Shown here: positions 6,138 to 64,000 of the stretch, piece by piece
How the letters are laid out: each line of letters begins with the position of its first letter
How positions within the stretch are numbered: the first letter of the stretch is position 1
Assembly (NCBI RefSeq): GCF_963921235.1
Contig: NC_086097.1
Coordinates: forward strand, 135,224,001-135,288,000
DNA length: 64,000 bases
Reading direction: 5' to 3'
From: Mobula hypostoma
Lineage: Eukaryota
Program-made: the position numbers and the translations under genes
Notes under the pieces: generated by a model
Seen by the model: only the letters and a program-made list of their open reading frames with translations
What the model was told of the DNA's origin: nothing
Database searches by the model: none

Positions 6138-9100
6138 CTAGGGGGTCAGATAGGCGATTCTGTGGACGCAGTCCAGAGACCTGGATGGTAGTTTGCCTCC
6201 CTGGTGCCAGGGTCCGGGATATTTCTCATCGTGTCCAAGATATCCTGAAGTGGGAAGGTGAGCAGCCAGAGGTCGTGGTACATATAGGTACCAATGACAT
6301 AGGTAGGAAAAAGGAAGAGGTCCTGAAAGGAGAATATAGGGAGTTAGGAAGGGAGTTGATAAAAAGGACCGCAAAGGTAGTAATCTCGTGATTACTGCCT
6401 GTGCCACGTGACAGTGAGAGTAGAAGTGCAATGAGGTGGAGGATAAATGCGTGGCTGAGGGATTGGAGCAGGGGGCAGGGATTCAAGTTTTTGGATCATT
6501 GGGACCTCTTTTGGCGCAGGCGTGACCTGTACAAAAAGGACGGGTTACACTTGAATCCTAGGGGGACCAATATCCTGGCGGGGAGATTTGCGAGGGCTAC
6601 TGAGGTGACTTTAAACTAGAATGATTGGGGGGTGGGAATCAAATTAAAGAGACTAGGAGAGAGGAGGTTAGTTCACAACAGGGGGGTGGGAACAAGTACA
6701 GAGAGACAGAGGGGTGTAAAATGAGGGTAGAAGCAAAAAGTGGTAAGGTGAAAAGTAAAAGTGGCAGGCCAACAAATCCAGGGCAAAAATCAAAAAGGGC
6801 CACTTTTCAGCATAATTGTATGAGGGCTAAGAGTGTTGTAAAAGCAAGCCTGAAGGCTTTGTGTGTCAATGCAAGGAGCATTCGTAACAAGGTGGATGAA
6901 TTAAAAGTGCAGATTGTTATTAATGAATATGATATAGTTGGGATCACAGAGACATAGCTCCAGGGTGACCAAGGATGGGAGCTCAACATTCAGGGATATT
7001 CAATATTCAGGAGGGATAGATATGAAAGAAAAGGAGGTGGGGTAGCATTGCTGGTTAGAGAGGAGATTAACGCAATAGAAAGGAAGGACATTAGCCGGGA
7101 GGATGTGGAATCGATGTGGGTAGAGCTGCATAACACTACGGGGCAGAAAACGCTGGTGGGAGTTGTGTACAGGCCACCTAACAGTAGTAGTGAGGTCGGA
7201 GATGGTATTAAACAGGAAATTAGAAATGTGTGCAATAAAGGAACAGCAGTTATAATGGGTGACTTCAATCTACATATAGATTGGATGAACCAAATTGATA
7301 AGGGTGCTGAGGAAGAGGATTTCTTGGAATGTATGCGGGATGGTTTTTTGAACCAACATGTCGAGGAACCAACTAGAGTGCAGGCTATTCTAGACTGGGT
7401 ATTTAGCAATGAGGAAGGGTTAATTAGCAATCTTGTCGTGAGAGGCCCCTTGGGTAAGAGTGACCATAATATGGTGGAATTCTTCATTAAGATGGAGAGT
7501 GACGTAGTTAATTCAGAAATAAAGGTTTTGAACTTAAAGAAGGGTAACTTTGAAGGTATGAGACGTGAATTAGCTAAGATAGACTGGCAAATGACACTTA
7601 AAGGGTTGACGGTGGATATGCAATGGCAGGCATTTAAAGATCGCATGGATGAACTACAATTGTTCATCCCAGTTTGGCAAAAGAATAAATCAAGGAAGGT
7701 AGTGCACCCGTGGCTGACAAGGGAAATTTGGGATAGTATCAATTCCAAAGAAGAAGCATACAAATTAGCCAGAAAAAGTGGCTCACCTGAGGATTGGGAG
7801 AAATTCAGAGTCCAACAGAGGAGGACAAAGGGCTTAATTAGGAAGGGGAAAAAAGATTGTGAGAGAAAACTGGCAGGGAACATAAAAACTGACTGTAAAA
7901 TCTTTTATAGATATGTGAAAAGAAAAAGATTGGTTAAGACAAATGTAGGTCCCCCTACAGACAGAAACAGGTGAATTGATTATGGGGAGCAAGGACATGG
8001 CAGACCAATTGAATAACTATTTAGTTCTGTCTTCACTAAGGAGGACATAAATAATCTTCTGGAAATAGTAGGGGACAGAGGGTCCAGTGAGATGGAGGAA
8101 CTGAGGGAAATGCATGTTAGTAGGGAAGTGGTGTTAGGTAAATTGAAGGGATTAAAGGCAGATAAAGCCCCAGGGCCAGATGGTCTGTATCCCAGAGTGC
8201 TTAAGGAAGTAGCCCAAGAAATAGTGGATGCATCAGTGATAATTTTTCAAAACTCTTTAGATTCTGGACTAGTTCTTGAGGATTAGAGGGTGGCTAATGT
8301 AACCCCACTTTTTAAAAAAGGAGGGAGAGAAACCGGGGAATTATAGACCGGTTAGCCTAACATCGGTGGTGGGGAAAATGCTAGAGTCAGTTATCAAAGA
8401 TGTGATAACAGCACATTTGGAAAGTGGTGAAATCATCGGACAAAGTCAGCATGGATTTGTGAAAGGAAAATCATGTCTGACGAATCTCATAGAATTTTTT
8501 TGAGGATGTAACTAGTAGAGTGGATAGGGGAGAACCAGTGGATGTGGTATATTTGGATTTTCAAAAGGCTTTTGACAAGGTCCCACACAGAAGATTAGTG
8601 TGCAAACTTAAAGCACACGGTATTGGGGGATGTGGATAGAGAATTGGTTGGCAGACAGGAAGCAAAGAGTGGGAATAAACGGGACCTTTTCAGAATGGCA
8701 GGCAGTGACTAGTGAGGTTCCACAAGGCTCAATGCTGGGACCCCAGATGTTTACAATATATATTAATGACTTAGATGAGGGAATTAAATGCAGCATCTCC
8801 AAGTTTGCAGATGACACGAAGCTGGGGGGCAGTGTTAGCTGTGAGGAGGATGCTAAGAGGATGTAGGGTGACTTGGATAGGTTAGGTGAGTGGGCAAATT
8901 CATGGCAGATGCAACTTAATGTGGATAAATGTGAGGTTATCCACTTTGGTGGCAAAAACAGGAAAACAGATTATTATCCGAATGGTGGCCGATTAGGAAA
9001 AGGGGAGGTGCAACGAGACCTGGGTGTCATTATACACCAGTCATTGAAAGTGGGCATGCAGGTACAGCAGGCGGTGGAAAAGTCGAATGGTATGCTGGCA

Positions 9101-12174: not shown

Positions 12175-13530
12175 CATGACCAGGTAGAACTGCAGAATGA
12201 ATATCTGAGGTACTGGCACAAAGGTAGGGTTTCAGGTTCTTGGATTATTGGAATCTCATCTGGGCCAGGGTGACCTGTACAAGACCAACAGGTTGAACCT
12301 TAACTGGAAGGGAGCCAGTATCCTGACTGGGAGCTCGTGCTACTTGGGAGGGTTTAAACTAGTTTGGCGGAAGGATAGGAACTAGACCACCAAGTCAGAA
12401 AGCGGAGGGATTGAGAGGAAGCTGGATGCCGTGACCAGGAAAAACAGGCAGGAGTAAGGTAATGCACACAGTGGGAAGGATGGGTTGAAGTGTGTGTGTT
12501 TTAATGCTAGGAATATTATAGGTAAGGGTGATGAACTTAGAACATGGATCAGTGCATGGAACTATGATGTTGTAGCCATAACAGAGACTTGGTTGAAATG
12601 ATGCTTAGAGTTGTTTGGGTATTTTATAAAAGATAAACAGGGAGGCAAGAATGATGGGGTGGGGGTGTATGACGCTACTGATGATAGCAGGTGAACCCTC
12701 CATTACGGCCTGTCCAAGCACAGCTGGGTCTGTACGGGTAGAATTCAAAAATAAGAAAGGTGCAGTTATCCTGATGGAATTGTACTACAGACCACTCAGC
12801 TAGCCACTGGGGCATTGAGGGACAGATATGCAGGCAGATTAGGGAAAAGTTTAAAAACAACATGGTTGTTGCAGTGGGGGGCATGTTAGTGGTAGGGAAA
12901 TACGGTTTTTGCAGGAGAGTATTAAATTGGAGCAGGATAAATTGCAAGAGTATTTGGTAGGAATAGTTAATTGGGAACAGGTATTTTTGGGCAAGTCCAC
13001 ATCTGACATGTGGAGGGTGTTTAAAGTCCACCTGCACAGAGTACAGGACAGGTATGTTCCAGTCAGAAGGAAGGACAAGGACAGCAAGGTAAGGGAACTG
13101 TGAATGTCAAGAGAGAGCGTGAATTTAACCAAGAAAAAAAAGGAAATGCATGTATGATTTAGGAGGCTAAAATCGAACAGAGCCCTTGCGAATTATAAAG
13201 AAGCCAAAACAAACTCAAGAATGAAGTTGGAAGGGCCATGAGGAGCTGTAAAAACTTCTTGGGGAAGTAGAATTAAAGTGAATTTCAAGGCATCCCATAC
13301 ATACGTCAAGAGCAAGAGGATAAGTAAGGAGCTGGTAGGACCGTTCAAAGATAAAGGAGATACCAGGTGCTTGAAGGCGGAGGATGTGGCTAAGGTCCTA
13401 AATGAATACTTTGTATCAGTATTTACCAAGGAGAAGGATGTGAAGTGTAGAAAAATTAGTGTGAAGCATGCTAATTTACTCAGGTATTTCAGGATGAAGA
13501 ATACAGTAGTACTAGGGCTCTTAAAGAATG
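12175..13530 (+). mobile_element. Old CR1 fragment (ORF1 end, ORF1/ORF2 junction, endonuclease and linker remnants)
   Basis: Degenerate esterase C-terminus, GGTTTAAACTAG junction, AITETW and LNEYFVSVFTKE remnants. Confidence 0.75.
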
Positions 13531-17341: not shown

Positions 17342-18276
17342 TTGAGGAGAGGGGCAGTTTGCTGTTCTCGGTGTCGGATGTGGGAGGCCCTGGAGTCTCC
17401 AAGCCTCCCGGACGTCTACATCTGCGCCAAGTGCATCGAGATGCAGCTCCTAAGGGACCGTGTTACGGAACTAGAGCTGCAGCTCGATGACCTTCGTCTG
17501 GTCAGGGAGAGTGAGGAGTTGATAGAGAGGAGTTGCAGGCAGGTGGTCACGCCGGGGCCACGGGAGGCAGACAAGTGGGTCACGGTTAGGAGGGGGAAGG
17601 GGAAGAGTCAGGTAATAGGGAGTACCCCGGTGGCTGTGCCCCTTAACAACAGGTACTCCTGTTTGAGTACTGTTGGGGGGGACAGCTTACCCGGGGGAAG
17701 CGACAGTGGCCGTGCCTCCAGCACAGAGTCTGGCCCTGTAGCTCAGAAGGGTAGGGCAAGGAAGAGGAGGGCAGTTGTGATAGGGGACTCAATACTAAGG
17801 GGGTCAGATAGGCAATTCTGTGGACGCAGTCCAGAGACCCGGATGGTAGTTTGCCTCCCTGGTGCCAGGGTCCGGGATATTTCTGATCGTGTCCAAGATA
17901 TCCTGAAGTGGGAGGGTGAGGAGCCAGAGGTCGTGGTACATATAGGTACCAATGACATAGGTAGGAAAAGGGATGAGGTCCTGAAAGGAGAATATAGGGA
18001 GCTAGGAAGGGAGTTGAGAAAAAGGACTGCAAAGGTAGTAATCTCGGGATTACTGCCTGTGCCACGCAACAGTGAGAGTAGGAATGCGATGAGATGGAGG
18101 ATAAATGCGTGGCTGAGGGATTGGAGCAGGGAGCAGGGATTCAAGTTTTTGGATCATTGGGACCTCTTTTGGCGCAGGCGTAACCTGTACAAAAAGGATG
18201 GGTTACACTTTTGTGTAGGGGGACCAATATCCTGGCAGGGTGATTAGCGGGGGCCACTGAGGTGACTTTAAACTAG
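17342..18276 (+). pseudogene. CR1 ORF1p: CxxC-CxxC zinc finger, coiled coil, SGNH esterase
   Basis: CSRC...CAKC, a heptad Leu run, GDS, PGA, GTND and DGLH blocks. No ATG start; a 1-nt frameshift near 18210 precedes the natural stop at 18274-18276. Confidence 0.85.
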
Positions 18277-18281
18277 AATGG

Positions 18282-20807
18282 TTGGGGGGTGGGAATCAAA
18301 TTAAAGAGGCTAGGCATGAGGACGTTAGTTCACAACAGGGGGATGGGAACCAGTGCAGAGAGACAGAGGGGTGTAAAGTGAGGGTAGAAGCAAAAAGTAC
18401 TAAGGAGAAAAGTAAAAGTGGCAGGCCGACAAATCCAGGGCAAGCATTAAAAAGGGCCACTTTTCAACATAATTGTATAAGGGCTAAGAGAGTTGTAAAA
18501 GAGCGCCTGAAGGCTTTGTGTGTCAATGCAAGGAGCATTCGTAATAAAGTGGATGAATTGAAAGTGTAGATTGTTATTAATGATTATGATATAGTTGGGA
18601 TTACAGAGACATGGCTCCAGGGTGACCAGGGATGGGAGCTCAATGTTCAGAGATATTCAATATTCAGGAGGGATAGACATGAAGGAAGGGGAGGTGGGGT
18701 GGCGTTGCTGGTTAAAGAAGAGATTAACGCAATAGAAAGGAAGGACATAAGCCGGGAAGATGTGGAATCGATATGGGTAGAGCTGCATAACACTAAGGGG
18801 CAGAAGACGCTGGTGGGAGTTGTGTACAGGCCACCTAACAGTAGTAGTGAGGTCGGAGATGGTATTAAACAGGAAATTAGAAATGTGTGCAATAAAGGAA
18901 CAGCAGTTATAATGGGTGACTTCAATCTACATGTAGATTGGGTGAACCAAATTGGTAAAGGTGCTGAGGAAGAGAATTTCTTGAAAAAAGATTATGAGAG
19001 AAAACTGGCAGGGAACATAAAAACGGACTGTAAAAGCTTTTATAGATATGTAAAAAGGAAAAGACTGGTAAAGACAAATGTAGGTCCCCTGCAGACAGAA
19101 ACAGGTGAATTGATTATGGGGAGCAAGGACATGGCAGACCAATTGAATAATTACTTTGGTTCTGTCTTCACTAAGGAGGATATAAATAATCTTCCAGAAA
19201 TAGTAGGGGACAGAGGGTCCAGTGAGATGGAGGAACTGAGCGAAATACATGTTAGTAGGGAAGTGGTGTTAGGTAAATTGAAGGGATTGAAGGCAGATAA
19301 ATCCCCAGGGCCAGATGGTCTGCATCCTAGAGTGCTTAAGGAAGTAGCCCAAGAAATAGTGGATGCATTAGTGATAATTTTTCAAAACTCGTTAGATTCT
19401 GGACTAGTTCCTGAGGATTGGAGGGTGGCTAATGTAACTCCACTTTTTAAAAAAGGAGGGAGAGAGAAACCGGGGAATTATAGACCGGTTAGCCTAACGT
19501 CGGTGGTGGGGAAACTGCTGGAGTCAGTTATCAAGGATGTGATAACAGCACATTTGGAAAGCGGTGAAATGATTGGACAAAGTCAGCATGGATTTGTGAA
19601 AGGAAAATCATGTCTGACGAATCTCATAGAATTTTTTGAGGATGTAACTAGTAGAGTGGATAGGGGAGAACCAGTGGATGTGGTATATTTGGATTTTCAA
19701 AAGGCTTTTGACAAGGTCCCATACAGGAGATTAGTGTGCAAACTTAAAGCACACGGTATTGGGGGTAAGGTATTGGTGTGGGTGGAGAATTGGTTAGCAG
19801 ACAGGAAGCAAAGAGTGGAAATAAACGGGACCTTTTCAGAATGGCAGGCAGTGACTAGTGGGGTACCGCAAGGCTCAGTGCTGGGACCCCAGTTGTTTAC
19901 AATATATATTAATGACTTGGATGAGGGAATTAAATGCAGCATCTCCAAGTTTGCGGATGACACGAAGCTGGGTGGCAGTGTTAGTTGTGAGGAGGATGCT
20001 AAGAGGACCCAGGTTGACTTGGATAGGTTGGGTGAGTGGGCAAATTCATGGCAGATGCAATTTAATGTGGATAAATGTGAAGTTATCCACTTTGGTGGCA
20101 AAAATAGGAAAACAGATTATTATCTGAATGGTGGCCGATTAGGAAAAGGGGAGGTGCAACGAGACCTGGGTGTCATTATACACCAGTCATTGAAAGTGGG
20201 CATGCAGGTACAGCAGGCGGTGAAAAAGGCGAATGGTATGCTGGCATTTATAGCGAGAGGATTTGAGTACAGGAGCAGGGAGGTACTACTGCAGTTGTAC
20301 AAGGCCTTGGTGAGACCACACCTGGAGTATTGTGTGCAGTTTTGGTCCCCTAATCTGAGGAAAGACATCCTTGCCATAAAGGGAGTACAAAGAAGGTTCA
20401 CCAGATTGATTCCTGGGATGGCAGGACTTTCATACGAAGAAAGACTGGATGAACTGGGCTTGTACTCGTTGGAATTTAGAAGATTGAGGGGGGATCTGAT
20501 TGAAACGTATAAGATCCTAAAGGGATTGGACAGGCTAGATGCAGGAAGATTGTTCCCCATGTTGGGGAAGTCTAGAACGAGGGGTCACAGTTTGAGGATA
20601 AAGGGGAAGCCTTTTAGGACCGAGATTAGGAAAAACTTCTTCACACAGAGAGTGGTGAATCTGTGGAATTCTCTGCCACAGGAAACAGTTGAGGCCAGTT
20701 CATTGGCTATATTTAAGAGGGAGTTAGATATGGCCCTTGTGGCTACAGGGGTCGGGGGTATGGAAGGAAGGCTGGGGCGGGGTTCTGAGTTGGATGATCA
20801 GCCATGA
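18282..20807 (+). pseudogene. CR1 ORF2p: partial APE endonuclease plus intact RT domain
   Basis: One frame from 18282; premature TAG at 18567-18569 (CAG in the sister copy); then a 702-codon ORF with the RT motifs. Confidence 0.88.
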
Positions 20808-23141
20808 TCATAATAAATGGCGGTGCAGGCTCGAAGGGCTGAATGGCCTACTCCTGCATCTATTTTCTATGTTTCTATGTTTCTATTACTGGTACATCTG
20901 ACTTTAGCTTCTCCTTCTCAAATTTCAGGGTAAATTCAATCAAATTATGATTACTTTTCCCTTTGGGTTATTTTACCCTGAGCTCTCTAATCAATTCTGT
21001 TTCATTGCACAACACCCAGTCCAGAATAGCTGATCCCCTAGTGGGCTCAACCATGAGCTGTTCTAAAAAGCCATCTGGTAGACATTGTAAAAATTTCCTG
21101 TTTTGGAATCCCGCACGACCTGATTTTCACGATCTACCTGCATATTGGAATTCCCCATGTCTGTTGTAAAATTGCCCTTTTGGCATGCATTTTCCATCTC
21201 TGATTGTAACTTGTAGACCACATCCTTACCACTGTTTGGGGGTCTGTATACAACTCCCATCAGGGTCTTTTAACCCTTGCAGTTCCTTAGTTCTATCCAC
21301 AATGCTTCAACACCTGCTGACCCCATGTCATCTCTTTCTAATGGTTTGATTTCATTTCTTACCAACAGAGCAACGCCACCTCCTCCGCCTTCCTGGTTGC
21401 CTGTCCTTTCAATGCAATGTGTATCCTTGGACATCAAGCTCCCAACTATATTCTTCTTTCAGCCATGATTCAGTGATACCTACAACATCATACCTGCCAA
21501 TCTATAACTGCTACAAGTACATCGACCTCGTTCCACATACTGCGCGCATTCAAATATACCACCTTTAGTCCTGTATTCACCATTTTCGATGTTGTCCACT
21601 TTTTACATTGAAACTCATTCTGTTGACTATTATTTTACCCTTTCATCAGCCCCTCCTTGTTAGGAGTCTTACTGCACATTGCCTCTGTTTGTAAACCAAC
21701 TACCTCATCTTCAGCCCTATCACTCCGGTTCCCGTCCCCCTGCCAAATTAGATTAAATGTGTCTGAACAACTCTAGCCAATCTGCCCTCAAGGATATTGG
21801 GTCCCCGCTGGTTCAGGTGTAAACAGTCCCTTTTGTATAAGTCAAACCTTCCCTAGAAAATAATCCCAATGATCCATTGATCTAACCCCCTGCTTCCTGA
21901 ACCAGTTCCTTAGCCACACATTCACCTGCCAAATCTCCTATTCGTACCCTTACTGGCACGTAGCACAGGCAGCAATCTTGAGATTGCTACCTTGGAGGTC
22001 CTGTTTCTCAGCTTTTTACCTAGCTCATTAAAATCTCTCTTCAGAACCTCCTCACCTTGCCTACCTATGTCATTGCTGTGAATATGTACCAAAAATTCTG
22101 GCTGCTCACTCTCTCCCTTTGAGTATATCACAGACCCAATCCAAGACATCCTTGACCCTGACACCTAGAGGCCACTTACCATCTGGGTGTCCCTATTGGA
22201 CCCGCAGAACCTCATCTCTGTTCTTCTGACTGTAGAATCTCTAATCAATACTGCAGTCCTCTCCACCTCTCTGCTCTTCTGGGCCACAGCACCACACTCA
22301 GTGCCAGAGACCTGGTCACTGTGGCTCCCCCCTCACCACCGGCAGGTCACCCCCCCCCCCCCCGCCTCAGTAGTATCCAAAGTTGTGTACTTGTTATTGA
22401 GGGGAACAGAACAGCCACAGGTATATTCTGCACTGGCTGTGCACTTCCCCTCCTCCTCCTGACAGTCACCTAGTTACCCGTCTCCTGAAACCTAAGGGTG
22501 ACTATCTCAGAATCTCCTATCTATTACCTCCTCATTCTCCCGTATAAGTCAAAGGTCATCGAGCTGCAGCTCCAGTTCCTTAGTATGTTGTCGCAGGACC
22601 TGTAGTTCAGTATACTTGGAGCAGTTGTGTTTATCTGGGAGACTGGAGGTCTCCCCACGTCCCTCAAGCTGTACAAAATACTGCCCCTGGAACCATTCTT
22701 ACTATACTCCGCTCTAATAGATGAGGAATGATCAAATAAGAACACAGAGAGAACAACGTACAAGACAATCTACCTCACCTTAGCCTGCTGAGCCAAAGCC
22801 ACTTTGGCACTCTCCAAAATTAATGGCCACTCTGCTTGAACTTGAGTTATTCTTATTGGCCCTTCCTAATGAATCCCTGTTATTGATTGGTTGCACCTCC
22901 AATTAGAAAAACTGCTGCAAAACTCTGCTTTTGAAATCTCAGTTGCCGCCCTGATTAAAAAGTAGCTCTTTTCATGCACCCCTGCTCCAACTCCACATGC
23001 ATTGACAAATTAGAAATAAAACCAGCTGTTGTTTTCTTTTGCTTTATGTTTTGTTATTAGCCGAAATGATAAAAAGAACTTCATTTGATGTCTGCTGACG
23101 ATATCATGATTATTAAGCTATACCTTTTTTCCTTTCCACAG

Positions 23142-40815: not shown

Positions 40816-43341
40816 CAGGGGTGGCCAACCTGTGGCGCACTGGATGATTAGAAGTGGTGCATTGCACCCCAGTGATAATAATAAAAAAGTAAGCCTACTC
40901 ATGCAAAAAGTATTAACCCAAAACCAATTTGTAGAAAAAAAATCTATAACAGGAATTCCAGTAGCTTAGAGCTAGAAATGGGTTTTACTGAGAATAAATC
41001 TAAAACTTAGCAATTATTTTTTGCGATTTTATTATTTCATGCATATCTTTTGGTGAATGTTATCATCTTTCACATTAATCTGTTTTTAATTTTAAAAAAA
41101 TGTTCAATGAGTCAAACTAGGAAAGGACTTTTGTTCTGCAGTCGTTCCATAACTGTTGTTTGATCCTGAGGCGCCAGGCGTCTGCACCAGCGGTGCGTCG
41201 CAGGTTTTTGCCCGTCAGTTTACAATTGACACTCATGCTCTATGGAGTTGTGCTTTGTTCATCCTTTGTGAACATTTGCAGTTTTGTTCTTTTTCAAAAA
41301 TTAAGCCTTGTTTTTACATTCATTTACCCTTCACAGTGCAAAAGAAAATGAGCAAAAGAAAAGCAGAAAGTGATAGTAAGCATGAATTCAGTGAACAGTG
41401 GGAAAATGAGTTCTTATTTATAGCGGGTCCGTCAGGAAAACGTTGTGCATTGTTTGTGAAAACACTTTCTCACATAATAGAAGACATGATCTTAATAGAC
41501 ACTATAAAACACAACATCAGACTGAAATAGACGGAAAACTGAAGCTAGTGTTTGGGTCTGAGTTATGGAAAGAATATGTGATTAAGAAAAAGGAAGAAAT
41601 CAAAAGAAGACAAAATATATTTGTTTGGCGATGACAGAAGCATCCTACGAAATTGCTTTAGCGTTGGCCAAAAAGCGGAAGTCTTTCTCTGATGGAGAAG
41701 AAATTGTTAAGCCTCGTCTCCAAATATTTGCAAGATGTCTTGGTGATAAAAATATTGACAGGAAAGTAGACGAAATTGCTCTGTCAAAGCAAACAGTTAC
41801 GAGACGCACCGAAGAACTCTGTCATTATGTATCTGAGCAACTGAAAGACCTCGTCCGTGCTTGTACTTTATTTTCTTTAGTTTTGGACGAATCTGCTGAC
41901 TTATGTGATGTAGCCCAGTTAAGCATTTTTATAAGAGGAATTGATCATTTTAGCGTCTTTGAAGAACTTATCAGTCTTGAGTTGCTTCATGGAAAAACAA
42001 GAGGATCAGACATATTTCACAAAGTAAAATGCCTAGAAAATCTACAACTAGATTCTAGTAAACTCATCGGTGTTTGTACTGACGGAGGGCCGTCAATGAT
42101 AGGTAAAGCCGCTGGGACTACAACTTGCTTGAATACTTTTTAGGTCGTCCTCTACTAAAATATCACTGCATTATACACCAAGAGTCACTGTGTGGAAAAA
42201 CTTTTAAATTTGCAGCATGTTATTTACTGGTTGTGAAATGCGTGAATAAAATTAGAGCAAGAGGATCAAACAGACGAGAATTCAGAGAATATTGTGAAAT
42301 GTTAGATTTGGAATATGGCGATCTCATCCTTCATTGTGAGGTGTGCTGGCTTTCGAGAGGACAGGTTCTGAGTAGATTTTGGAAACTGAAAAATACTTCA
42401 TAATTTTCTAGAAGAGAAAAATGAGCTGCTTGAGGAAAGAGCCCTTTTAAGTGATAACAATTGGCGATTTGATTTAGCATTTTTAGTTGATGTTACCAGT
42501 CATCTCAGTGATGTAAATTTGAAACTCCAGGGCAAGAACAAATTGTTTCCTAGCTTAGTAAATGATATCAATGCATTCAAGATGAAGTTAAAACTGTTCA
42601 CCTCTCAGTTAGAAAATAAGGATTTGAGCCAGTTTCTACACTTAAAAGAGCAGAGTGAATGTGCTGAAGATAATGGCAATTTTACAAAATATATTGAAAA
42701 AATCAGGTTATTGCAAGTCATTTGAAAGTCGTTTTTGTGATTTTGCTAAAGAAGAAGACTGCATACTTGCATTTATAAACCCATTTTCACTTAGTGAACA
42801 AAAACATCATGAAGATGCCTAGTAACATACAAATGGAACTTATTGACTTGAAAACAAGTTAATTATTGAACATGAAATTTGATGAGCTTCCCTCAGTCCC
42901 AAATGCTTCTGACATGATTAATTTCTGGCCATCATTACCCTGTGAACATTTTCCAGAACAAAGAAAATTTTCCCAGAGTTATATCTGTCGTTTTGGAACG
43001 ATGTACAGATGTGAACAAGCATTTTCAACCATGAAATTGATTAAAAACAAAACGAGGTCATGATTGACATTCAAATTTGAAGAATTCTCTGCTACTCTCA
43101 GTAACTAATTTAACTCCAAACATTAAAAGCTTGGCGAAATCAAAACAGACTCAAAAGTCTCATTAAGGTAAGTAATGCTTATCTTGTTTTTATATTAAAT
43201 CAATATATCATGTAAAAATGCTAAATATGTCTACATTAACATTTTTACAAGAAGTGAATGAGGGTACCAGAGTTGTATGGTGCATCTGAACTTGTGCGTG
43301 AAAAAATTGACGCATGGAATGTAAAAGGTTGGCCACCCCTG
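40816..43341 (+). mobile_element. Full-length decayed hAT transposon (Buster/Charlie/SPIN, GTF2IRD2-like transposase)
   Basis: Perfect 16-bp TIR CAGGGGTGGCCAACCT; 8-bp TSD GCCTAAAT/GCCTAAAC with central TA; frameshifted transposase from ATG 41348 with LDES.D, CTDG.PSM.G, HCIIHQESLC, WLSRG, FGT.Y.CEQ.FS.MK. Confidence 0.95.
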
Positions 43342-44444
43342 GCCTAAACTAATAACACACAAACAATTGTACTTTTCATGCCTTATTGAACACATTGTTC
43401 AATCATTCACAGTCTAGGCTGGAAAAAGTATGTGAATCCTTGTATTTAATAACTGGTAGAACCTCCTTTAGCAGCAGTTACCTCCACCAAACATTTCCTG
43501 TAGCTGCTGATCAGACTTGCATAACGGTGGGGAGGAATTTTAGATCGTTCCTCTACACAAAACTGTTCCAGTCCATCAATATTTCTGGTATACCTTGCAT
43601 GATCAGCCCTCTTCAGGTTCTGCCAGAGCATCTCAATTGGATTAAGGTCTTGATTCTGACTTGGCCATTCCAAAACACAATTTTCTTCTTTTTAGACCAT
43701 TCTGTTGTTGATTTATTCTTGTGTTTCGGATCATTGGCTTGTTGTATTATCCAACTTCTGTTCAGTTTCAAGTGACGGACTACTACGCTGACATTCTCCT
43801 GTGAAAAGTCTCGATACAATTTTGAATTCTTTGTTCCTTCAATAATTGCAAGCTGTCTAGGCCCTGAGGCAGCAAAGCAGCCCCAAACCATGATGCTCCT
43901 TCCAGCATGTTTCACACCTGGGATGAGGTTTTGGTGTTGGTGTGCAGTGCCCTTTATCCTCTAAACATAGCAGTGTGCATTTCTGCCAAAAAGGTCAACT
44001 TTTGTCTCATCTGTCCACAGAACATTGTCCCAGAAGCATTGTGGAACATCCAGTTGGTCATTTGCAAACTTCAGATGTGCAGCAATGTGTTTTTTGGAGA
44101 GCAGTGGTTTCCTCTGTGGTGTCCTACCATAAACACTGGTATTTTTCTTATAGTGGACATGTGAACAGAGACTTTAGCAAGTTCTAGGGATTTCTGCAGG
44201 TCTCTTGCTGTTACCCTTCGGTTCTTTTTCATCTCCTTCAGCATTGCATGCTGTGCTCTTGGTGTGATCTCTGCAGGACACCCTCTCCTTGGGAGAGTAG
44301 CAACAGTACAGAATTTCCTCCATTTGTAGACCATTTCTCTTACTGTGGACTGATGAACACTAAGGTCTTTGGAAATGCTTTTGTAGCCTTTTCCAGCTTC
44401 ATGCATCTCCAACCCACACCTCCAATCTCATCTCATTGATTGGA

Positions 44445-49242: not shown

Positions 49243-52129
49243 CTATCTACAACCGCTCTTTGCCTTCTGTGGGCAAGCCAGTTCTGGATCCACAAAGCAA
49301 TTTCCTCTTGGATCCCATGCCTCCTTACTTTCTCAATAAGTCTGGCATGGGGTATCTTGTCAAATGCCTTGTTGAAATCCATATACATTACATCCACTGC
49401 TCTACCTTCATCAATATGTTTAGCCACATCCTCAAAGAATTCAATCAGGCTCATAAGGCATGCTGACTATTCCTAATCATATTATGCCTCTCCAAATGTT
49501 CATAAATCCTGCCTCTCCAGATCTTTTCCATTAACTTACCAACCAGTGAAGTAAGACTCACTGGTCTATAATTTTCTGGGCTATCTCTACTCCCTTTCTT
49601 GAATAAGGGAACAACATCTGCAACCCTCCAATCCTCCAGAACCTCTCCCATCTCCATTGATAATAAAAGATCATCACCAGAGGCTCAGCAATCTCCTCCC
49701 TCGCCTCCCACATTAGCCTGGGGTACGTCTCATCTGGTCCCGGTGACTTATCCAACTTGATGCTTTCCAAAAGCTCCAGCACAAATTCTTTCTTAATGTC
49801 TATATGCTTAAGCTTTTCAGTCTGCTGTAAGTCATCTCTACAATTGCTATGGTCCTTTTCCATAGTGAAAACTGAAGCAAAGTATTCATTAAGTACCTCT
49901 GCTATCTCCTCCGGTTCCATACACACTTTTCCACTGTCACACTTGATTGGTCCTATTCTCCCACGTCTTATCATCTTGCTCTTCACATACTTGTAGAATC
50001 CCTTGGGGTTTACCAAGACCTCCTCATGGCCTCTTCTGGCTCTCCTAATTTCATTCTTAAGCTCCTTCCTGCTAGCCTTATAATCTTCTAGATCTCTATC
50101 TTTACCTAGTTTTTTGAACCTTTTGTATGCTTTTCTTTTCTTCTTGACTAGATTTACAACAGCCTTTGTACATCACAGTTCCTGTACCCTACATTCCTTT
50201 CCCTGTATGATTGGAACATACCCATGCAGAACCCCACACAAATATCTCCTGAACATTTGCCACATTTCTGCCGTACATTTCCCTGAGAACATCTGTTCCC
50301 AATTTATGCTTCTAAGTTACTGCCTGATAGTCTCATATTTCCCTTACTCCAATTAAACGCTTTCCTAACTTGTCTGTTCCTATCCCTCTCTAATTCTATG
50401 GTAAAGGAGATAGAATTGTAGTCACTATCTCTAAAATGCTTTCCCACTGAGAGATCTGACTTCTGACCAGGTTCATTTCCCAATACCAGATCAAGTACAG
50501 CCTCTCCTCTTCTAGGCTTATCTACATATTCTGTCAAGAAACCTTCCTGAACACACCTAACAAACTCCACCCCATCTAAACCTCTTTTTCTAAGGAGATG
50601 CCAATCAATATTTGGGAAATTAAGATCTCCCACTGTGACAAACCTGTTATTATTACACCTTTCCAGAATCTGTCTCCCTATCTGGCCTCGATGTCCTTGT
50701 TACTATTGGGTGGTCTATAAAAAAACAACCAGTAGAATTATTGACCCCTTCCTGTTCCTGACTTCCATCCACAGTGACTCAGTAGACATTCCCTCCAAGA
50801 CTTCTTCCTTTTCTGCAGCCGTGACTATCTCTGATCAACAGTGACACGCCCCTGCCTCTTTTGCCTCCCTCTCTGTCCTTCCTGAAACACCTAAAGCCTG
50901 GCACTCTTAAGTAACCATTCCTGCCCCTGAGCCATCTAAGTCTCTGTAATGGCCACAACATCACTGCTCCAAGTACTGATCCACGCTCAAAGCTCATCCG
51001 CTTTGTTCAGAATACTCCTTGTATTAAAATAGACACATCTCAAATCATCAGTCTGAGCACATCCCTTTTCTATCACCTGCCTATCCTCCCTCTCGCACTG
51101 TCTACAAGCCTTCTCTACTTGTGAGCCAACCGCCCCTTCCTCCGTCTCTTCATTTTGGTTCCCACCCCCCTGCAATTCTAGTTTAAGCTCTCCCCAATAG
51201 CCTTTGCAAACCTCCCAGCCAGGATATTGGTCCCCCTTGGATTCAAATGCAACCTATCCTTTTTGTCCAGGTCATGCCTGCCCCAAAAGAGGTCCCAATG
51301 ATCCAGAAATCTGAATCCCTGCCCCCTACTCCAATCCCTCAGCCACGTATTTGTCCTCCACCTCATTCTATTCCTATTCTCCCTGTCGTGTGGCAGAGGC
51401 AGTAATCCGAGATTACTACCTTTGTGATCCTGATTCTCAACTTCCTTCCTAACTCCCTGTAGTCTGTTTTCAGGACCTCCTCCCTTTTCCTATCTATGTC
51501 GTTGGTATCAGTATGTACCATGACCTCTGGCTGTTCACCTTCCCACTTCAAGATATTGTGGACGCGATCAGAAACATCCTGACAAAGTAGGCAGCTGGAG
51601 CAGGTCCCTGTCTGTTGCCAGGTGGAAGGGTCCTTCCTGTGCTGGACAATGAGGGGTGGGGGCTGTCTACCAATGCTGAGGGACAGCCACGCTGTGTCAC
51701 TGCTGGTTCCTCACTAAGGGGCGGGGAATGGGGAAAGTTGGGTGGGTTGCTAAGGTTGGTCAGGCTGCTGAAGGGGTCAGAGTCAGTGTTGGTGTTGCAA
51801 TTCCCGGGCCACAAGGCTGCTAGAGTGGTGTAGGGTCGTTGCTGGCTTTTCCCTAGGGAGCACCCCCTCCCCTGAGCTAAACTCCTTCATCACTGGGGCT
51901 GAGACTAGAGCTGGCAGAACTCCTCAACAAAACACTCCACAATGTGGCTGGAATAGAGGGTGATGAATTTCTCACAGACCTGTGCTGACAGCCAACTATA
52001 ACTGTAGGCAGAGAAGTACCAGGTCAAACTTCAACCAGGACGGAACAAAACGATGTCTATTCTGTGCCACACCAATCGATGATAAAAGAAGCCTTTTACT
52101 TACATGGACTGTTTTTACCAGTGACTAGT

Positions 52130-62809: not shown

Positions 62810-64000
62810 CAAACCCTATTTCCAGAAAAGTTGGGATATTTTCCAAAATGCAATAAAAACAAAAATCTGTGATATGTTAATTCACGTGAACCTTTATTTA
62901 ACTGACAGAGGTATAAAGAAAAGATTTTCAATAGTTTTACTGACCAACTTAATTGTATTTTGTAAATATACACAAATTTAGAATTTGATGGCTGCAACAC
63001 ACTTAACAAAAGTTGGGCAGAGTTAAAATAAGATTGAAAAGTACACAGAATATTCAAGTAACACTGGTTTGGAAGACTCTACATTAAGCAGGCTAATTGG
63101 TAGCAGGTGAGGTATCATGACTGGGTATAAAAGTAGCGTCCATCAAAGGCTCAGTCTTTGCAAGCAAGGATGGGTTGTGGCTCACCCCTTTGCGCCAAAA
63201 TTCGTGAGAGAATTGTTAGTCAGTTCAAAAGGAATATTTCTCAATGCAAGATTGCAGAGAATTTAGCTCTTTCAACATCTACAGTACATAATATTGTGAA
63301 AAGGTTCAGAGAATTCAGAGACATCTCAGTGCGTAAAGGGCAAGGTCGGAAACCACTGTTGAATGCGCGTGATCTTTGAGCCCTCAGGCGGCACTGCCTA
63401 AGAAACCGTCATGCTACTGTGACAATTATAGCCACCTGGACTTGGGAGTACTTTGGAAAACCATTGTCACTCAACACAGCCCGTCGCTGCATCCAGAAAT
63501 GCAACTTGAAACTGGATTATGCAAGGAGGAAGCTATATATCAACTCTATGCAGAAACGCTGGCGAGTTCTCTGAGCCCGAGCTCAACTCAGATGGACCAA
63601 AAGACTGTGGAACTGTGTGCTGTGGTCAGATGAGTCCACATTTCAGCTAATTTTCAGAAAAAACGAGCGTCGAGTTCTCCGTGCCAAAGATGAAAACGAC
63701 CATCCAGATTGTTATCAGCGAAAGGTGCAAAAGCCAGCACCTGTGATGGTATGGGGGTGCATCAGTGCCCACGGCATGGGTGAGTTGCATGTATGTGAAG
63801 GTACCATTGACTCTGAGGCGTATATTAGGATTTTAGAGAGACATATGTTGCCATCAAGGCGACGTCTCTTCCCAGGACGTCCATGCTTATTTCAGCAGGA
63901 CAATGCCAGACCACATTCTGCACGGGCTACAACAGCGTGGCTCTGTAGACACAGAGTGCGTGTGCTTGACTGGCCTGCTGCCAGTCCAGATCTATCTCCT
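62810..64000 (+). mobile_element. Tc1-like transposon: left IR/DR end plus transposase pseudogene; runs off the window end
   Basis: TA|CAAACCCTATTTCCAGAAAAGTTGGG; inner repeat AAAAGTTGGG near 63008; ATG at 63170; HTH region; WSDES, VMVWGCIS, FQQDNARPH, LDWPAASPDLSP; premature TGA at 63377. Confidence 0.92.

Follow-up and report, generated by a model that had tools for sequence, protein, structure and literature searches.

In the canonical CR1 retrotransposons of the ray Mobula hypostoma, long interspersed nuclear elements (LINEs) with two open reading frames (ORFs), ORF2 is probably expressed by a programmed -1 ribosomal frameshift at the heptamer T TTA AAC, which would yield an uncleaved ORF1-ORF2 fusion of esterase, endonuclease, and reverse transcriptase (RT). 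The analysis concerns a 64,000-nt stretch of NC_086097.1 (the window, to which all coordinates refer), and its findings are computational, derived from sequence. In the copy under study, the heptamer (18267..18273, plus strand like the other features of this copy) stands in the X XXY YYZ phase of ORF1 and is directly followed by the ORF1 stop codon TAG (18274..18276). The ORF1 remnant (17378..18276) encodes N-terminal Cys pairs and a GDSL/SGNH esterase (approximately 17780-18211; Pfam PF13472, E 9e-15). After a spacer of 10 nt comes a G-tract of the form GGGGG-NN-GGG (18284..18293), a candidate linear stimulator. It lies in a variable linker (18277..18524), and the -1 frame is open from the heptamer to the NxRS motif of the endonuclease. 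The ORF2 remnant (18525..20807) comprises an apurinic/apyrimidinic endonuclease (APE) and an RT (PF03372, PF00078), and the element ends in a 3' tail of 8-nt repeats (TTTCTATG units; 20864..20886). A short-repeat tail instead of poly(A) is a feature of CR1. The element thus appears to be a canonical CR1 LINE of the esterase type, the CR1 label being drawn from likeness to CR1-labelled library rows; its closest named ORF1 homologue is a devil-ray protein (95% identity). The copy is dead and decayed, with ORF1 out of frame near 18214, where it is one base short compared with related contigs, and a premature ORF2 stop at 18567.

A sequence-only reading of the window had proposed the frameshift from five junctions, all of which are present where it placed them. 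Besides that at 18267, these are TTTAAAC-TAG at 6610..6619 (plus strand; family A, to which the 18267 copy also belongs), TTTAAAC-TAG at 12353..12362 (plus strand; family B, an old copy with a decayed G-tract), TTTAATC-TAA at 21748..21757 (minus strand; family D), and CTTAAAC-TAG at 51178..51187 (minus strand; family E). The five copies do share the junction; since those at 6610 and 18267 are of the same family, the window holds four lineages and not five. The two deviating heptamers are likewise real as read, and turn out to be mutations of single copies: families D and E both read TTTAAAC (21/30 and 24/30 copies exact). It was also right that the -1 frame at 18267 is closed two codons 5' of the heptamer, by TGA at 18258..18260, and that ORF2 lacks an AUG for about 200 codons, well into the endonuclease. 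NxRS lies at codon 86 of this frame, and the first ATG is codon 215 (18912, in the endonuclease at GDFN). In-frame Met codons occur in the linkers of the 21757 copy (codon 26) and the 6610 copy (codon 37).

The junction was surveyed in 210 loci of eight families (A, B, D, E, F, G, I, and J; the top 20-30 copies each), anchored on ORF1 by a profile without the junction. As the queries for A, B, D, and E contained the junction, they favour it; no such bias affects the queries for F, G, I, and J or a scan of random loci. The majority sequence is T TTA AAC followed by TAG or TAA in 8/8 families, with TAA in four of them. Exact TTTAAACTAR is found in 30/30 (A), 18/30 (B), 21/30 (D), 24/30 (E), 14/20 (F), 9/20 (G), 6/30 (I), and 12/20 (J) copies, the others being mostly one or two bases off. 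As a measure of chance, it occurs 30 times in 2.4 million positions, approximately 0.0008 per 60-nt interval (1.2 Mb of arbitrary loci). In 120 arbitrarily placed 10-kb loci, a profile without the junction found 22 ORF1 ends, 13 with the exact sequence and 19 within two mismatches; three have apparently lost the junction, and none of the 22 belongs to a family with a different one. Two further CR1 families encountered (L314 and L321; L299 and L358) keep the heptamer, one of them with a shorter first G-run at unchanged spacing. Many copies of family I (L190-L219) carry expanded or rearranged G-runs just 5' of the heptamer that break the ORF1 frame, apparently a hot spot of slippage after insertion; the upstream frame of this family is unreadable owing to these expansions, and it was omitted from the table of ORF1-end codons. 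In one family A copy (L011), ORF1 and ORF2 share a frame owing to an extra T in the T-run of the junction; this is probably a homopolymer mutation of neutral effect.

The junction extends to other vertebrates. A C-terminal Leu-Asn is found in 42 of 55 ORF1 homologues, including proteins from skate, shark, frog, and hummingbird. In 41/42 cases the residue preceding it has a possible codon with a final T, which is not so for 25/42 residues one position further back; this protein-level test is modest when taken alone, because positions -6, -7, and -9 are likewise low in residues without such a codon (1-3 of 42). Bird-like CR1 copies were obtained from metagenome contigs (L161 is 56% identical to a hummingbird protein). 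Among 29 metagenome loci, six have an in-frame ORF1 end and two a junction behind a frameshift, the remainder being cut short or unrelated esterases; all six in-frame ends read TTTAAAC-TAG. A published repeat library (PMC13343379, Supplementary Table 2; the initial 400 bases per row, species from row codes, placement by eye) contains 23 matches for TTTAAAC plus a stop codon, 18 at CR1-like ORF1/ORF2 junctions of 12 species and five elsewhere. These species include elephant shark, catshark, dogfish, sawfish, stingray, and bowfin, as well as coelacanth, bullfrog, bearded dragon (with a TGA stop), alligator, and crocodile. As this search selected on the motif, it shows breadth and not frequency. 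The ray-teleost split is dated to approximately 462 Ma (PMC13343379).

Some library rows and homologues stand apart. TTTAAACTAR also occurs in the 5' untranslated region (UTR) of the dogfish rows SquAca_CR1-3 and SquAca_CR1-18, in an AT-rich stretch. The row AldAff_Crack-2, labelled Crack, has an esterase-like ORF1 end and the CR1 heptamer when inspected by eye and is possibly mislabelled. A protein named as a Pseudomonas hydrolase (P0020) shares 62% identity with the ray ORF1 query and has the C-terminal Leu-Asn; it is likely a contamination. Three catfish esterase-RT models (P0048, P0049, and P0051) do not end in Leu-Asn, so that the signal may be confined to canonical CR1. Scans with the ORF1 alignment revealed no relatives in viral or prokaryote contigs, and a motif scan of viral contigs gave 0 matches.

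The conservation lies in the nucleotides and not only in the encoded residues. Across 11 lineages (the eight ray families and three bird-like copies), whose endonucleases are 35-84% identical, positions 1-7 of the heptamer and the T and A of the stop codon are invariant, third codon positions included, as is G at positions 15, 18-22, and 25-27. The endonucleases of the same lineages served as a control: one of 31 codons with an invariant amino acid is itself invariant, the third base is unchanged in 2/152 variable columns, and invariant runs reach at most 5 nt. The esterase gives a similar picture in 14 lineages: 0/13 amino-acid-invariant codons are invariant, TTA accounts for 19/194 Leu codons, and AAC for 22/72 Asn codons. 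The first T of the heptamer stays the same whether its codon specifies Thr, Gly, Ser, Cys, or Ala. Ray and bird-like ORF1 share 27-36% identity and disagree at the majority of four-fold degenerate sites, yet all bases of the heptamer and the G-tract are common to both. The junction is a real, deeply conserved signal of the recoding type.

The frame of ORF2 fits this signal. NxRS lies in the -1 frame in 8/8 family majorities, at codons 50-86 and without an intervening stop. The linkers have six different lengths, all in frame and stop-free, while the other frames hold 0-9 stops; shuffling gives a probability of 0.005-0.085 per family for a stop-free linker. Four of the eight families (A, E, G, and I) have no Met ahead of NxRS, and the other four have one at the unrelated codons 19, 26, 29, and 38. 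In 7/8 family majorities the -1 frame is closed 2-5 codons 5' of the heptamer, and ORF2 must therefore be entered at or just past the junction. An AUG at or next to the stop is present in 0/8 ray majorities. Among the observations that, according to the sequence-only reading, would speak against it are synonymous variation in the heptamer, a conserved in-frame AUG for ORF2, and a variable offset between the frames. The heptamer shows no synonymous variation across families, no AUG is conserved, and the offset is -1 in 8/8 families; to this extent its frameshift proposal is supported, with the reservation that certain other lineages, which that reading could not see, do have an in-frame AUG at their stop.

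The ray families appear to have a reticulate history. The ORF1 esterases of families A (L001-L030) and E (L131-L160) are 89% identical and differ at 4/45 four-fold sites, whereas their endonucleases are 47% identical and differ at 25/34. In the ORF1 tree A groups with E (98/96), in the endonuclease tree with D, F, G, and J (98/97), where E is placed with B and I (92/95). Because the two trees disagree, ORF1-plus-junction cassettes have apparently been swapped among ORF2 lineages, the linker being where the break lies.

Several observations weigh against frameshifting. Ray families with exchanged ORF1 cassettes are not independent of each other, and near the ORF1 end 11/23 background codons likewise do not vary within the rays, both of which make the conservation test among rays weak; independent weight therefore comes from comparing ray with bird-like copies, from how far the bird-like copies diverge among themselves, and from the library rows. 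The G-tract is less constant in the library than in the 11 lineages: its spacing is 10 nt in seven rows (in one of which the heptamer is cut by the row start) and shorter in four, and in others the tract is absent or unreadable; bases are visibly dropped in these consensus sequences. Spacing is shorter or unclear in the bullfrog, coelacanth, lizard, and dogfish rows. No conserved hairpin, such as a classical structure-stimulated shift of the coronavirus or retrovirus type has 5-9 nt downstream, was detected in 13 sequences (local folding z -1.4 to +1.8, pseudoknots not being modelled directly), and long-range duplex partners remained at or near shuffle level in a set of nine rows, one of which (L137) was mis-anchored and ignored. 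A pairing with a C-rich stretch approximately 640 nt upstream was rejected, its energies being at shuffle level and the Pro codon concerned not being fixed in bird-like copies. Finally, potential start codons do exist. An in-frame ATG lies 2 nt past the stop in three of six intact bird-like copies (L161, L164, and L166) and in L162, one catshark and two dogfish consensus rows have a TAATG in which stop and start overlap (by eye), and near-cognate codons occur within three codons of the stop in 7/8 ray families.

These start codons bring in termination-reinitiation, an unlikely alternative that nevertheless retains some weight. Ribosomes would restart in the -1 frame a few bases from the stop, at an AUG or a near-cognate or arbitrary codon, and produce a separate ORF2p, the conserved block being the restart signal. 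The open -1 linker is explained equally well in this manner. Precedents exist in SART1, which uses UAAUG coupling with a downstream element, in calicivirus restart, which tolerates changes of the start codon (PMC5972666, in the accessible excerpt), and in the ORF2 of L1, which tolerates loss of its AUG (PMC1965478, likewise). Under reinitiation, however, there is no reason to expect exactly an X XXY YYZ heptamer, and one in slip phase, and the heptamer is retained even in elements with an AUG at the stop. Where present, the in-frame AUG differs in position between elements (codon 4 or 5); the ray majorities lack it altogether, and family B has no near-cognate codon near the stop either. A match to UGGGA, the motif of termination upstream ribosomal binding sites (TURBS), is found 97-117 nt upstream in 7/8 ray families, at or near Trp-Asp codons, and is absent in 5/6 bird-like copies, which makes a motif conserved at a usable distance doubtful. 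Both processes may possibly operate side by side.

The remaining readings are improbable even when taken jointly. Constraint on the proteins, i.e. on a C-terminal Leu-Asn of ORF1p and an N-terminal Gly-x-Gly of ORF2p, with nucleotide identity inherited or spread by cassettes, could draw on the exchange among ray families and on the invariance of about half of the background codons there; it is scarcely credible, since the synonymous-site controls go most of the way to refuting it, no start is provided for ORF2, and it conflicts with the bases shared by the otherwise divergent ray and bird-like ORF1. Hardly better placed is another RNA or DNA signal, such as a splice acceptor, a packaging signal, or an internal promoter, with ORF2 being made from a processed or separate transcript. 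The TAG junctions do end in YAG, G-runs can serve as splicing enhancers, and the same 10-mer appears in the 5' UTR of the two dogfish rows mentioned above. Junctions with TAA or TGA, however, lack the AG, a polypyrimidine tract is missing, and the frame continuity from the heptamer itself would be left unexplained. No GT..AG joint at the junction is listed in the contig runs examined, a weak result given that the RNA status of the contigs is guessed.

The frameshift reading builds on what can be seen directly: the sequence and phase of the heptamer, a -1 frame that is open, synonymous sites that are frozen, and no AUG that is conserved. Most ribosomes would terminate at the ORF1 stop and release ORF1p, and a minority would slip back by one base, so that tRNA-Leu pairs anew with UUU and tRNA-Asn with AAA, and would continue through the linker. 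This would result in a high ratio of ORF1p to RT, the latter possibly tethered to an ORF1p particle in the manner of Gag-Pol. In the accessible parts of the recoding literature, U_UUA_AAC is counted among the shiftiest heptamers (PMC5009743) and described as the nidovirus shift site (PMC3835772). Instead of a pseudoknot, the adjacent stop codon together with the G-tract, lying unstructured at the mRNA entry channel, would probably supply the pause, the G-tract perhaps being bound by a protein or forming a weak G-quadruplex. The G-run starts at the 11th base past the heptamer in 11/11 lineages, in agreement with the linear motif of protein-stimulated shifts (arterivirus or cardiovirus type). 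According to the portion of PMC5009743 at hand, linear protein-bound stimulators are located 11-15 nt downstream of the shift site, those of arteriviruses act at such a distance, a plant-virus shift site requires a nearby stop, and no natural G-quadruplex stimulator is known. ViennaRNA favours a two-tier G-quadruplex in 8/13 sequences, with small gains. The lack of a conserved hairpin, the position of the G-run at the distance of linear stimulators, and the plant-virus stop make a pause from stop plus G-tract the best guess; it is likely, and at the same time the weakest and least certain step of the proposal. A wider version is tentative and rather doubtful: for more than 450 million years, the LINE that dominates in non-mammalian vertebrates would have made its RT as a Gag-Pol-like fusion, by a pseudoknot-free shift that is switched by the stop and a linear G-tract, with ORF1p itself or a host G-run binder reading the tract.

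The closest known systems share parts of this arrangement. Vertebrate canonical CR1 with an esterase ORF1 (type IVB, CR1 subgroup 7) has, as far as the accessible text of PMC4120745 and PMC13343379 goes, the same esterase ORF1, APE-RT ORF2, and short-repeat tail, and at the junction CR1-labelled stingray and sawfish rows (PMC13343379) look by eye like families E, G, and B. The viral U_UUA_AAC sites of coronaviruses, arteriviruses, and toroviruses (PMC3835772, Table 1, seen as an excerpt) have the same heptamer and phase, with the polymerase in the -1 frame; they differ by a pseudoknot 3-7 nt downstream, whereas CR1 has none conserved and an immediate stop. The nsp2 site in the porcine reproductive and respiratory syndrome (PRRS) virus, PRRSV, as excerpted from PMC5009743, resembles CR1 in its short, unstructured, low-complexity motif at equal distance (linear CCCANCUCC, to which nsp1beta and PCBP bind, 11 nt downstream). 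That motif is C-rich and serves another shift site, while the CR1 motif is G-rich and a candidate for protein binding only. Mammalian L1 (reinitiation) and SART1 (UAAUG coupling) resemble CR1 in their bicistronic LINE RNA, and TAATG is also found in some CR1 rows; in both, ORF2 is a separate protein, the L1 spacer measures 63 nt, and the excerpts describe no slippery site.

Among LINEs, frameshifting in CR1 would not be the first case. The sequence-only reading had implied that the process is foreign to non-LTR (long terminal repeat) elements, which is too strong: the APE-type non-LTR elements TRE5-A and TRE3-A of Dictyostelium are both stated to need a -1 frameshift for ORF2 (PMC5911963, in a review legend, the part available). 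They belong to another clade and host, and the likeness rests on the legend statement. For Paramecium elements, a +1 shift or reinitiation has been suggested (PMC5405496), PMC5006619 concerns DIRS-1 only, and the available part of a 2016 recoding review mentions HeT-A, TART, and L1 only. In their accessible text, neither PMC4120745 nor PMC13343379 mentions frameshifting or the mode of ORF2 translation; in the latter, a 2026 CR1 survey, 'frameshift', 'start codon', and 'overlap' are absent from the main text as retrieved, and 'frameshift' is absent from the supplement. The accessible portions of papers on chicken CR1, ORF1 classification, and the chicken, coelacanth, and snake contain nothing on a CR1 frameshift. 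No report of a CR1 frameshift signal is found in the literature searched, and the founding CR1 papers, which lie outside it, may already note overlapping frames or a frameshift.

Among the CR1 copies of the window lie decayed ORF fragments at 41586-42725 (plus strand), approximately 43600-44430 (minus strand), and 63575-64000 (plus strand), which we take to resemble DNA-transposon proteins (SPIN/hAT-like and Tc1-like).

Translation of the second ORF has been worked out for few LINEs, with reinitiation prevailing (SART1 and L1), and CR1 is described as the dominant retrotransposon of most vertebrates (PMC13343379, accessible text). If frameshifting holds true, the CR1 RT would be a fusion with the esterase ORF1p, ORF2 annotations that start from the first Met would be wrong, and engineered CR1 assays would require the native junction. 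The junction itself is a cassette of approximately 30 nt, ready for use in reporters, and a candidate for a natural frameshift stimulator without a pseudoknot. Should the G-tract indeed be read by a protein, CR1 would be a cellular mobile element with a regulated frameshift activated in trans, with ORF1 plus the signal forming a portable cassette swapped between ORF2 lineages.

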